Shown one piece after another: positions 42,301 through 45,300 of a stretch of 64,000 nucleotides of DNA. How positions within the stretch are numbered: the first letter of the stretch is position 1; each line of letters opens with the position of its first letter. The position numbers were made by a program. The DNA comes from Candidatus Woesearchaeota archaeon (GTDB lineage: Archaea; Nanobdellota; Nanobdellia; Woesearchaeales; WAPY01): contig JBNAUL010000002.1 in the NCBI GenBank assembly GCA_049700835.1, positions 222,999-286,998 of the forward strand, written 5' to 3'.

Positions 42301-45300
42301 TGATTCTGAAATGAAATACGAACTAATGTGCAACTACGGAAACCACACAATACAGGGGTATTATTTTGTAGAAGGTAATTACAAGCAGAAATTCTACATT
42401 GAGAATACAACATTCTTTATTCAAAAAGTCATTCCAAAAGAACTTCCGATATGGCTTTGGTTTGTTCTTCTGATGCTACTCATAATATTTTTCATAGCAG
42501 TGCTTAAGAGAGAAGAGTTATAAAAAACAAAAAAATGAAGATCCAAGAGATAAAAAACCTTCTAAAAGAGGAATTGTATAACATCCTGGAAAGCGAGGGG
42601 ATAGAGGAATTAAGACCTGCTCAAGAAAAAGCAATAAGGGCAGGGCTTCTTAATGGAAAAAACCTTCTTATCTGCACTCCGACTGCTTCTGGGAAAACTT
42701 TAATAGCAGAGATAGCAATGGTAAATACGATACTCTCAAATGGAGGCAAGGCTGTTTACATTTCCCCGTTAAAAGCCCTTGCAAATGAAAAGTACAATGA
42801 TTTTAGAAGAAAATACTCAAACTTGATGCGGATTGCATTATCCATTGGAGATTTTGATTCTGCTGACGCGTATTTGATGGACTACGATTTGATAATCATA
42901 ACTTCTGAAAAACTTGACTCTTTGATAAGGCACAATGCTCCGTGGATTCCAATGATAAGGGTTGTAATAATTGATGAAGTACACCTGCTAAATGATTTTG
43001 AAAGAGGCCCTACCCTTGAAATCTTGATAACTCTTTTGAAACAAGTTTTGAAGAAAGTTCAGATAATTGCGCTCTCAGCAACAATAGGCAATCCAAAAGT
43101 ATTGGCAGAGTGGTTGAATGCTGATTTGATTATAGACGATTGGAGACCTGTAAAATTGAAAAAAGGAGTTTTACACAATTGGGAAATAAAATTTTTTGAA
43201 TAGTTCTATTTTCACGGCAACTTATCAGGGGGAATCTTCTTTACAATCTTTTCAACAATTTCTCCTGCATCATACTTTTCTTCATGCAAAACGCTGTTGA
43301 AGAACCTACAAACGTTGAAAACATCTCTTGAAAGGTAATTCAAAGAATCTTGGTTTCTCATAGGAGTTGAATGGCTCAAATCAATAAAATACGGCTTTCC
43401 TTCATAGTTTAGTATGTTGAACTCAGAGAGATCTCCATGAACAAAACCATGAACCGCAAACTTCTCTATGTTTTTGAAAACTTGCTTTGCAAAGTTTTCT
43501 ACATTCTCAGGCAGAGAGTCCTTAATACTTGGAGCAGGGTTTTCCTTCCCTATGAATTCCATTATCAAAATGTTCTTTTGGAATGCGATTGGCTTTGGAG
43601 CGTTTATTCTTGCTCTTTGCGCGTTTATTAGATTTCTGAACTCCCTCTGACACCAAGCAAATATAACCTTCCTGCGCTTGTTAGCCAAGCCCTTAAATCT
43701 TGGGTCTCCTCTTATGTAAAAAAACATTCTCTTGAAATCAGCTGTCTGAAGCCTGTAAATTTTCACTATAACCTTCTCGTTGCTTTTTGTAAGCGCAAAA
43801 AAGATATTTGACTCTTTGCCAACAGCAATGTTTCCTTTTAGCTCCTCAAAAATTCCCTTGTTTATCAAAATTTTTAAATTGTTGATTGTAAAATTGTCAA
43901 AAACATCCTGCCAAACCTCAAATTTTTCTTTCCATTTAGGCATAACAATGAATGTTTTTTGAAAGTTTAAAAATTTTTTTAAAGAAAAAAATTAAAAAAA
44001 ATTTAAAATAGAAAAGTTTAAAAACAACACTAACTTATTTTTCAAAACGATAATCATTTAAAAGTAGAAATTAAATTCAAGATATCAAATTAATATTAAA
44101 TAATTAAATAATCTAAATAATCAATATTGGATTTAATCAGTTGAATACTGACAAACAAACGAGCAGGTGATAGAATGCAAAAGAGCATGAGGGAAATTGT
44201 CAATGAACTTTCTTATGAGGATCTTTTAAAATTCAAGAAAGATCTTGAAGAGAATTCTTTTCAGATAAAAAAACTCGTCGAACAGAGGATTAGGCAGGAG
44301 ATTGAAAAAAATTCTCATGTTTGCGCCAACTGCGGAAGAAAGATGAATCCCTACGAGGATGATGAACTTTGCTTAATCTTTGGGCCTCCTGATTTCAAAA
44401 GAAGGGCTTATTTCTGTGGGATTGACTGCCTTGAGTATTTTCTTGCAGAACTGAAGAAGATTGAAGTCAAAAAACTAAAAATTCCTAAAATTTAAAAAGC
44501 AGAGCAAAATACCAGTAATTTATGGAGAAATACTTAAATGAAATAAGAGTGCCCAAGGAAAGAGTAGCAGTTGTCATTGGAAAGAAGGGTGAGACAAAAG
44601 AAAAGATTGAGAAAGAACTCAACTGCAAACTAAGAATTGATTCTGAAACAGGGCTTGTAACAATAAATTCAAAGGATGCAATAATGCTCTACAAGGCGTC
44701 AGAGATAATAAAGGCAATAGCCCGTGGTTTCAGTCCTGAGAATGCTTTTCTCCTTCTGAAAACAGATTATGTTCTTGAAATAATTTCTTTAAAAGAATAC
44801 ATAAAATCAAGCAATAGGATGAAGATAGTGCTTGGAAGGATAATAGGAAGCAATGGAAAGTCAAAGAGGACTATTGAAGAACTAACAAACACTGTAATAT
44901 CTGTCTATGGAAAAACTGTTTCAATAATAGGGGAGACATTGAATGTCATCAATGCAAGAAGAGCTGTAACAATGCTTATAAACGGGGCGCAGCACACAAG
45001 GGTTTTTAGTTTTCTAAGCAAAATTGCTGAAGAGGAAAAGAAGATAAGCATGCTTGGTTATGAGGAAAGGGAGGATGTTGTTTATAAAAAGATTGACGAG
45101 CAATTGAATAAAAACAAGAAAGAAAATAAAAAAGAGAGAAAGACAACTGAAAACAATAAAAATAAAAACAAGAAATTAGAGACAAAAGAGTAAAACCTAA
45201 AGAGTAAAGCAGAAAGACAAAAACTGGCTGAATTTTTAAAAAATATGAGATATTTAGAGCAGGAGAAAAAGAAGAAAAAAGCGCAAAAAACAAGCAATGA

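Follow-up and report, generated by a model that had tools for sequence, protein, structure and literature searches.

Split genes are well known in very small archaea as a general phenomenon, to which the helicase Hel308 described here adds a case. In Nanoarchaeum, the two halves of DNA polymerase B are joined by a split intein. The available text of Podar et al. (2013; PMC3655853) reports that some gene breaks in Nanoarchaeota are common to different lineages at the same site, and that the halves are believed to come together post-translationally; split tRNAs of Nanoarchaeota are mentioned, Dph2 appears among the split genes of the nanoarchaeon Nst1, and a 'Predicted RNA-binding protein' assigned to arCOG01695/COG01293 is listed as split (NEQ438-506 and Nst176-251). 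A split of Dph1/2 has been reported for DPANN archaea including Woesearchaeota in the available portions of Narrowe et al. (2018; PMC6143161) and of a review (PMC6349945).

The window analyzed here, a stretch of 64,000 nucleotides from contig C2 of a Candidatus Woesearchaeota genome (completeness 98.66%, contamination 0.25%), contains on its plus strand at 42535..43203 a complete ORF of 222 amino acids that comprises RecA1 and the first beta-hairpin of RecA2 of Hel308. This N piece matches Pfam DEAD (1.2e-32) and positions 1–217 of 739 in NCBIfam PRK02362 (7.2e-86), and it aligns with residues 1–219 of PDB 2p6r and 8–210 of 2zj2. Motif I (Walker A, TPTASGKT, T48–T55) lies at 42676..42699, motif II (DEVH, D147–H150) at 42973..42984, and motif III (SAT, S181–T183) at 43075..43083, all on the plus strand. 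Residues T48, P49, T50, S52, G53, K54, and T55 of motif I, D147, E148, and H150 of motif II, and the whole of motif III are invariant in 22 N pieces, as is Q30, so that RecA1 motifs Q, I, II (DExH), and III are all present on the N piece. The C-terminal tail W203–E222 (43141..43200, plus strand) consists of a WRPV linker and a beta-hairpin with strands 210–214 and 217–221, according to the secondary structure of an AlphaFold model (pLDDT 89.4) that ends in this hairpin. The ORF ends with the stop codon at 43201..43203 on the same strand, and the adjoining gene (43212–43943) is on the opposite strand. N pieces of relatives all end directly after the tail hairpin. In the available text of PMC2636818, domain 2 of P. 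furiosus Hjm begins at residue 198, and the N piece is aligned through Hjm residue 210, that is, past the border between domains 1 and 2; judged by this alignment, the tail W203–E222 is part of domain 2 (RecA2) in one-piece Hel308.

The remainder of the protein is encoded outside the window by a separate ORF on the minus strand, C2:307905-309518, 42 kb from the N piece. As annotated, this C piece has 537 amino acids and a TTG start; the start positions in relatives favor an in-frame GTG at codon 15 and suggest a true length of 523 amino acids. Pfam matches to HTH_61, Helicase_dom4_arc (2.4e-28), and HHH_5 indicate a winged-helix domain, a ratchet domain (domain 4), and an HhH domain (domain 5). 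The RecA2 motifs IVa, V, and VI on the C piece, represented by F91-H92-H93-G95-L96, T119..G125, and Q156-G159-R160-G162-R163, respectively, are invariant in 20 sequences; motif IVa is given as F/YHHAGL in the available text of PMC10484726. In a model of the C piece folded alone, residues 1–16 have no secondary structure. The two pieces cover PRK02362 in a complementary manner (1–217 and 215–713 of 739) and both match P. furiosus Hjm with high identity (E values of 4.6e-69 for N and 1.1e-94 for C), with neither reaching the curated whole-protein cut-off for Hel308 of 887 bits (287.2 and 454 bits). The break is located inside Hjm domain 2, ∼20 residues past the domain 1/2 border, which leaves a beta-hairpin of the partner's domain on the N piece. 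The summed length of 222 + 523 amino acids equals that of a normal Hel308 (710–750 amino acids).

The preliminary description claimed that Hel308, aRqcH, and Dph2 are each encoded in two ORFs, and all six ORFs have their own start and stop; the profile matches agree that the members of each pair represent complementary parts of one protein and do not overlap. When the genome was searched in all six frames for a full-length copy of Hel308, aRqcH, or Dph2, the pieces were found and no such copy. Exactly one DEAD-only and one Helicase_C-only orphan motor frame are found in the genome, beside three complete SF2 helicases; apart from Hel308 itself, the Hel308 profile matches best a single frame of 899 amino acids, which may be Lhr. 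The Hel308 N gene and its stop show 0 differences in contigs of one sequencing run, which is possibly the window's own source sample; contigs of a second run cover parts of the N-gene stretch, stop excluded. ThiI was likewise described as lying in two genes 4.5 kb apart, and both were found: one encodes a 215-amino-acid PP-loop piece and the other a piece of 341 amino acids with ThiI_fer, THUMP, and a tail of ∼140 amino acids having no Pfam match.

The distribution of the Hel308 split was followed in a census of the order, comprising 61 genomes from 60 families, with counts taken among the matches listed, 19 weaker matches being left out. Among the matches listed, no open frame crosses the break in any of the 61 genomes and no single polypeptide is above the Hel308 cut-off (0/61); the N piece is present in 54, the whole C piece in 53 with C fragments in 4 more, and both whole pieces in 49. 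In these same listed matches the N and C pieces are never neighbors and lie 30–333 kb apart when on one contig. Seven genomes, three of which are 96–98% complete (G053, G019, and G037), have no N piece among the matches listed, and neither piece is among those listed for G006 (96% complete) and G054 (83%). Genome sizes in the order range from 0.6 to 2.7 Mb. The break site is identical in nine Woesearchaeota-type loci and 20 further genomes, and chance is excluded because the same pieces recur in 61 genomes of 60 families. Furthermore, 3808 stand-alone proteins of 122–389 amino acids match the N piece at E ≤ 1e-40, the best 120 of the 3808 having lengths of 219–274 amino acids.

Outside the order, 65 genomes from other orders of the class include 41 with Hel308, and in 40 of these a frame crosses the break site; the remaining genome, G099, is ambiguous, with both pieces stopping at contig ends. 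Four genomes outside the order (G087, G099, G067, and G119) seem to have a split Hel308, but these cases were rejected as breaks at contig ends. In a tree obtained by a quick search with SH-aLRT as its support measure, the split forms group in a single clade (SH-aLRT 100), with the split state changing once on the tree. The earlier proposal that the Hel308 split is an old marker of the whole order is thus upheld by the same site in every sampled family, the single gene in other orders, and the single clade.

Comparison with an 85%-identical relative gives a dN/dS of 0.05, a rough value because dS is saturated (1.8), and close to the 0.035 and 0.057 of neighboring genes. Invariant catalytic motifs, purifying selection, and co-occurrence support the claim that the pieces behave as functional two-piece proteins. 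It is highly probable that Hel308 has undergone a true and ancient gene fission, and that its halves assemble non-covalently as a two-piece enzyme. According to this proposal, a single break would have occurred in the ancestor of the order, ∼20 residues inside the second motor domain, and the two gene parts would have moved apart later. The N gene product would supply RecA1 with motifs Q, I, Ia, Ib, II, and III and the C-terminal beta-hairpin, and the C gene product would supply the remainder of RecA2 with motifs IV, IVa, V, and VI, and the winged-helix, ratchet, and HhH domains. The two proteins would join without a covalent link into the normal Hel308 ring, in which the N-piece hairpin completes the RecA2 sheet of the C piece, RecA1 contacts domains 3 and 4 as it usually does, and the ATP site forms across two chains. 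The idea that the hairpin may act as a tether derives from homology to solved one-piece structures and from two separately folded models.

The alternative that survives best, although it is improbable, is that the pieces have separate jobs and form no joint enzyme, the C piece binding or annealing DNA, for example, and the N piece binding nucleotide on its own. The pieces are indeed never adjacent and have no common conserved neighborhood; synteny around the N piece is kept only with the closest relative, and therefore provides no operon clue. Moreover, a few fairly complete genomes have one piece alone among the matches listed (G010 and G024, N only; G019 and G053, C only). However, both pieces are retained in 49 of 61 genomes among the matches listed, the ATPase motifs are invariant on both sides of the break, and the N piece retains a hairpin that belongs to its partner's domain. 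Motif VI of SF2 helicases works at the RecA1–RecA2 interface, and the conservation of this motif (QxxGRxGR) on the C piece is sensible only there. An explanation considerably less probable again is that the halves are rejoined into one chain by a split intein or by RNA trans-splicing. Joining of both kinds of split product, inteins and tRNAs, occurs in Nanoarchaeum, and large intein-like inserts are present in some Hel308 genes elsewhere (G100; L018-L020 and L024). At the break described here, however, there is no intein-sized extra sequence: the N piece ends at 2p6r residue 219, the C piece begins at most ∼10 residues before the homologous region, the combined length is already that of a normal Hel308, and start and stop are conserved separately for each piece. 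Between the 3' region of N and the 5' region of C, the sole complementary stretch is an AT-only 11-mer that was matched by 3/200 shuffles, in what is a weak test. Finally, the notion that the pieces stem from broken genes or faulty assembly, a process that truly accounts for the four apparent splits outside the order, has a negligible probability within it, where the pieces lie inside long contigs, are bounded by stops at the same site across 60 families, are under purifying selection, and are spanned, for the N gene and stop, by the identical contigs of the run mentioned above.

Together with ancient fission and non-covalent assembly of Hel308, the two other pairs were considered. RqcH is encoded by C1:58386-59495 and C2:12690-13517, both on the plus strand and outside the window, and the pieces cover RqcH_arch (NF041120) at 2–375 and 381–642 of 645. 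NFACT_N and NFACT-R_1 lie on different pieces, and the 400-bit cut-off is reached by neither piece alone. Every one of the 61 order genomes has a split RqcH, with both pieces in 51 and a fused form in 0, and pairwise phmmer alignments with a full-length relative place the break at the same beta-turn in five aligned genomes. Because this beta-turn belongs to a small middle domain, each piece has one stretch flanking that domain. The RqcH tree is compatible with a single origin for the split as well as with several. COG1293 is presumably the RqcH/NFACT family, and the RqcH split here matches the NEQ438-506 / Nst176-251 split of Nanoarchaeota. RqcH would be a two-piece protein in the same sense as Hel308, with halves that associate.

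Dph2 is encoded by C3:68246-68533 (minus strand) and C1:486945-487637 (plus strand), likewise outside the window. The pieces cover arCOG04112 at 1–64 and 73–292 of 308, and the family profile for whole Dph2 (TIGR03682) is covered. The small piece has the cysteine motif CFGAC and the large piece has LGC and TACPR; the cut falls after the first conserved cysteine, so that of the three the small piece keeps one and the large piece two. We take these three cysteines to hold the 4Fe-4S cluster. The split occurs almost throughout the order and in most of the class, and the arrangements form a graded series from fused through stop-separated, overlapping, and nearby to unlinked. Dph2 would also be a two-piece protein in the sense of Hel308, with pieces that associate in the same way.

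These results have consequences for annotation and for phylogeny. Thousands of public proteins of ∼220 amino acids carry no label beyond "DEAD/DEAH box helicase". Since their partner pieces do not reach the family cut-offs, it is to be expected that Hel308, RqcH, and Dph2 will be scored as missing or fragmentary in the order, and Narrowe et al. warn of such misscoring for Dph2 in the available text (PMC6143161). As a clean, rare genomic change, the Hel308 break sets one order apart: it is found in 60 of 60 sampled families among the matches listed and has no confirmed case in the other orders sampled. A natural helicase with its motor domains on separate chains, if the chains associate as proposed, would provide a ready-made system for studies of RecA1–RecA2 cooperation. 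A more ambitious reading, doubtful as a whole, combines a natural two-subunit SF2 motor with an ATP site across two chains, a tether made by the donated hairpin, assembly as a control point at which helicase activity would be on only when both subunits are made, and three fissions of different ages as nested markers, with that of Dph2 class-wide, that of RqcH found at one beta-turn in several lineages, and that of Hel308 order-specific; if true, these nested rare changes could anchor the disputed branching order within the phylum.

The preliminary description regarded all three splits as new, which stands for Hel308 and fails for the other two. No paper on a Hel308 split was found in the literature searched, with the N. 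equitans split-gene list taken from the available text of Podar et al. (2013; PMC3655853), and nothing relevant was found there on RecA1 and RecA2 on separate polypeptides, on NEQ438 and NEQ506, on NFACT in Nanoarchaeum, or on the numbering of the Dph2 cysteines. For an archaeal RqcH split under that name, the literature searched gave nothing relevant, 'split' there meaning ribosome splitting; the arCOG01695 split nonetheless precedes it, as Podar et al. and Narrowe et al. precede the Dph2 split. Compared with the split Dph1/2 of DPANN (PMC6143161 and PMC6349945, available portions), the gene is the same and Woesearchaeota are among the lineages named in the review, and the present work adds only the position of the break, the 1+2 division of cysteines, and the fused-to-unlinked series, details which may already be contained in figures or supplements of those papers. 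The 'large helicase' listed as split in Nanoarchaeota is Lhr (arCOG00557 in the available Podar supplement) rather than Hel308.

Like N. equitans DNA polymerase B, Hel308 here is one enzyme encoded by two unlinked genes; unlike that polymerase, whose halves are ligated by an intein, it has no intein sequence at the break. Like one-piece archaeal Hel308/Hjm (PDB 2p6r, 2zj2, and 2va8), it has five domains and all motifs, whereas its chain is cut inside domain 2 and neither piece reaches the family cut-off. Like the split Lhr of Nanoarchaeota (NEQ003-409 and Nst172-239), it is an SF2 repair helicase in two genes; it belongs, however, to a different helicase family, and its site is constant, whereas the Lhr sites differ between the two nanoarchaea in the available text. 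In common with the split genes of N. equitans and Nst1 as described in the available text (PMC3655853), a single protein is specified by two complete genes that are not linked, and a full-length copy is absent. Hel308 is missing from the Nanoarchaeota list in that text and the lineage described here belongs to a different order, in which at least 60 families have the Hel308 split as a fixed trait, whereas the splits listed there for Nanoarchaeota are confined to one or two species.

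The Hel308 helicase of the genome under study (G000; 1.07 Mb, 4 contigs, 98.66% complete) is encoded in two separate genes. The window covers C2:222999-286998 of G000. Its ORF at 42535-43203 (+), the N piece, runs intact from ATG to stop and encodes 222 aa; it contains a Pfam DEAD domain (1.2e-32) and matches positions 1–217 of the 739-position Hel308 model PRK02362 (7.2e-86). The C piece, at C2:307905-309518 (−), matches positions 215–713 and carries Helicase_C, HTH_61, archaeal helicase domain 4 and HHH_5; the two genes lie on opposite strands with 42 kb between them. RqcH (C1:58386-59495 (+) and C2:12690-13517 (+)) is divided into positions 2–375 and 381–642 of the 645-position model RqcH_arch, with NFACT_N on one piece and NFACT-R on the other, and Dph2 (C3:68246-68533 (−) and C1:486945-487637 (+)) into positions 1–64 and 73–292 of the 308-position model arCOG04112. 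The preliminary description held that the halves of each protein cover non-overlapping parts, and the profile matches are indeed complementary for all three; all six ORFs are present, and each is one uninterrupted frame bounded by a start and a stop of its own. Six-frame searches of G000 recovered these pieces alone and no whole copy of Hel308, RqcH or Dph2. Three SF2 frames of G000 contain both DEAD and Helicase_C (756, 899, and 636 aa). Beside them stand a single frame with DEAD but no Helicase_C, which is the Hel308 N piece, and a single frame with Helicase_C but no DEAD, which is the C piece. By eye, the gene adjoining the N piece (43212-43943 (−)) resembles one for a RIO-type kinase, and a 566-aa ORF at 45358-47058 (+) resembles topoisomerase VI subunit B; the gene order around the N piece is common only to the closest relative (locus L006).

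Nine titled loci and another 20 genomes were compared at the break site. Without exception the N piece ends directly after WRPVxLxxG-x4-G-x-I-E-F, and the C piece opens with M-x-K-x-[LV]-K-I followed by ...DTI..KQALVFVNTKRSAE; in one-piece relatives a loop of variable length, 5–20 residues, fills this position. Comparison with the starts of relatives indicates that the C piece of G000 probably begins at an in-frame GTG, 14 codons past the TTG, giving 523 aa. The N piece aligns with residues 1–219 of A. fulgidus Hel308 and 8–210 of P. furiosus Hjm, and the C piece alignment begins at Hjm 228 and A. fulgidus 235. Since Hjm domains 1 and 2 comprise residues 1–197 and 198–399, respectively (PMC2636818), the cut lies ∼20 residues inside RecA2 and not at the domain border. 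For the N piece, AlphaFold (pLDDT 89.4) gives a RecA fold followed by a linker (201–209) and a hairpin of strands 210–214 and 217–221; in the model of the C piece folded alone (pLDDT 83.4), residues 1–16 are without secondary structure. We infer from these singly folded models and from the solved one-piece structures that the hairpin would complete the sheet of the partner and would serve as a tether to the C piece.

The split was followed through the order Woesearchaeales in 61 genomes, one from each of 60 families and a second from the window's own family. No Hel308 match exceeds the whole-protein cut-off in any of the 61, and nowhere does an open frame extend across the break. Among the matches listed, to which 19 weaker ones do not belong, the N piece (model ∼1–220, frames of 197–335 aa) is present in 54/61 genomes, a whole C piece (∼220–715) in 53, and C fragments only in 4. 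By the same matches, 49 genomes have both whole pieces, two have the N piece without C (G010, G024), four a whole C piece without N (G019, G048, G053, G058), one C fragments without N (G037), and two neither (G006, G054). Four genomes without a piece among the matches listed (G053, G019, G037, G006) are nevertheless 96–98% complete, which either argues against strict co-retention of the pieces or reflects assembly gaps. Where the two pieces occupy one contig, 30 to 333 kb separate them, and in no case are they neighbors. In three genomes the C piece (G046:C12:102771-104318, G049:C111:14415-15941, and G056:C56:6498-8138) lies within a frame of 746–789 aa, ∼200 aa above the usual length, and in G046 the extra part sits downstream of the helicase. 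Many order genomes also encode a second, one-piece Ski2-like helicase (e.g., G043:C45:33066-34826 and G015:C33:4344-6110) in frames of ∼630–690 aa scoring 160–205 bits to the Hel308 model; none in this score range is found in G000.

In a sample of 71 genomes of the class Nanobdellia, searched at E≤1e-60, all six members of the order have the split. The 65 others comprise 24 without a match at this threshold and 41 with Hel308, and in 40 of these 41 the frame is continuous through the break site, doubtful cases having been fetched. Splits in G087, G067, and G119 are only apparent, as the pieces run off contig ends; G099 (72% complete), where both pieces end at contig ends, is ambiguous for the same reason. 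Among the 41 there is thus no demonstrated case of a split. One-piece Hel308 also occurs in frames of 1120–1233 aa (G100:C3:14026-17652 and loci L018, L019, L020, and L024); that of G100 has a ∼1.5-kb insert, intein-like in appearance, between model positions 340 and 342. In a quick IQ-TREE analysis of 20 split forms, each with its two pieces concatenated, 14 one-piece class forms, and 6 outgroups, the split forms are one clade (SH-aLRT 100), amounting to a single change of state, with the one-piece gene of G071 as sister (support 90). The same site across the sampled families, the single clade, and the lack of a demonstrated split in the other class genomes sampled agree with the earlier proposal of an order-wide trait: the Hel308 split marks the order cleanly.

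Neither new end of Hel308 has intein-sized sequence, and comparison of the N and C genes revealed no meaningful RNA complementarity. Q30, T48–T55 (Walker A), D147/E148/H150, and S181–T183 are invariant in 22 N pieces, as are FHHxGL, the motif V stretch, and QxxGRxGRP in 20 C pieces. Against an 85%-identical relative the dN/dS of the N gene is 0.05, a rough value with dS saturated near 1.8, and those of neighboring genes are 0.035 and 0.057. A public protein collection contains 3808 N-piece matches of 122–389 aa at E≤1e-40, the best 120 of which are 219–274 aa and named only "DEAD/DEAH box helicase". The observation of split genes is real, and the reading as functional two-piece proteins, whose halves would have to associate, is well supported: in Hel308 the motifs are invariant and dN/dS is low.

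RqcH, of the RqcH/NFACT family (COG1293), is matched in all 61 order genomes and in none above the cut-off; both pieces are found in 51 and one in 10. In the class sample 39/71 genomes score above the cut-off, mostly as one gene, and the split also occurs in G070, G086, G101, G111, G120, and G065; the pieces of G098 run off contig ends. In pairwise alignments to a one-piece relative, the N pieces of five order genomes stop at reference residues 355–370, and the C pieces of these five and of G070, G086, G111, and G065 begin at 373–378. The N end is placed at 369 in G070 and at 364 in G086, the latter from a second, weak match (E 0.025); the N match of G111 stops short (E 0.13), the N piece of G065 does not match the reference, and both tails resemble the others by sequence alone. 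The cut is a turn between two short strands, with "...vn.kek.i.lel" before it and "M.i.l...ks.eenA..Y.ekAKk" after it. Alignment of the C piece to B. subtilis RqcH begins at residue 365; by the domain maps of the family, the break would then fall within the small middle domain, at the coiled-coil tip, and each piece would carry one helix of the coiled coil. A quick RqcH tree was unresolved, neither forcing nor excluding a single origin. With 187 bits, versus 205–307 for most of the order, the G000 N piece stands out as divergent, and it forms a long branch in this tree. In G038 (C157:1000-2092) the N match runs only through many stops (8 TGA, 4 TAA); either decay of the gene or poor contig quality may account for this.

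The Dph2 break, at model position 65–72, is shared by nearly the whole order and by most class families, and is therefore older than the order. Dph2 is in one frame in G045, within the order (G045:C5:14019-14912), and in G070, G075, G103, G108, and G118, and in one frame with an insert in G102. The fetched examples (L106–L115) are a graded series from fused to unlinked: an in-frame stop with ATG immediately after it (G049, G061), stop/start overlaps of 4 nt (G006) and 7 nt (G007, G008), a gap of ∼0.47 kb (G040, G121), and unlinked genes in most others, including G000. The CFGAC motif is on the small piece and LGC and TACPR on the large one; if their cysteines are the three ligands of the 4Fe-4S cluster, the cluster would be held by both chains. 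ThiI of G000 is, as previously noted, also divided between two genes, which lie on opposite strands at a distance of 4.5 kb: a 215-aa PP-loop piece at C3:103382-104029 (−; L105:883-1530) and a 341-aa ThiI_fer and THUMP piece at C3:108512-109537 (+; L105:6013-7038), the last ∼140 aa of which have no Pfam match.

The Hel308 split appears to be unreported: no published account was found, a statement limited to the literature searched because subscription journals and supplements lay largely outside it. Split Hel308 was not found in the available parts of a Ski2-family survey (PMC10946056) or in PMC8407392, and "helicase" has zero occurrences in a fusion/fission survey (PMC11237513) and in the Nanobdellota preprint. 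The novelty claimed in the preliminary description holds for Hel308 to this extent and falls away for RqcH and Dph2, splits that are already known under other names. Podar et al. (2013; PMC3655853) tabulate split proteins of N. equitans and the nanoarchaeon Nst1, among them a "Predicted RNA-binding protein" (NEQ438-506/Nst176-251; arCOG01695/COG01293 in their supplement) split at the same site in both, "Diphthamide synthase sub. DPH2" split in Nst1 (Nst222-440), and a "Large helicase-related protein" that their supplement places in Lhr (arCOG00557). Split Dph2 of DPANN archaea is treated by Narrowe et al. (2018; PMC6143161), and a review (PMC6349945) names Parv-, Pace-, Woese- and Altiarchaeota as lineages with split Dph2.
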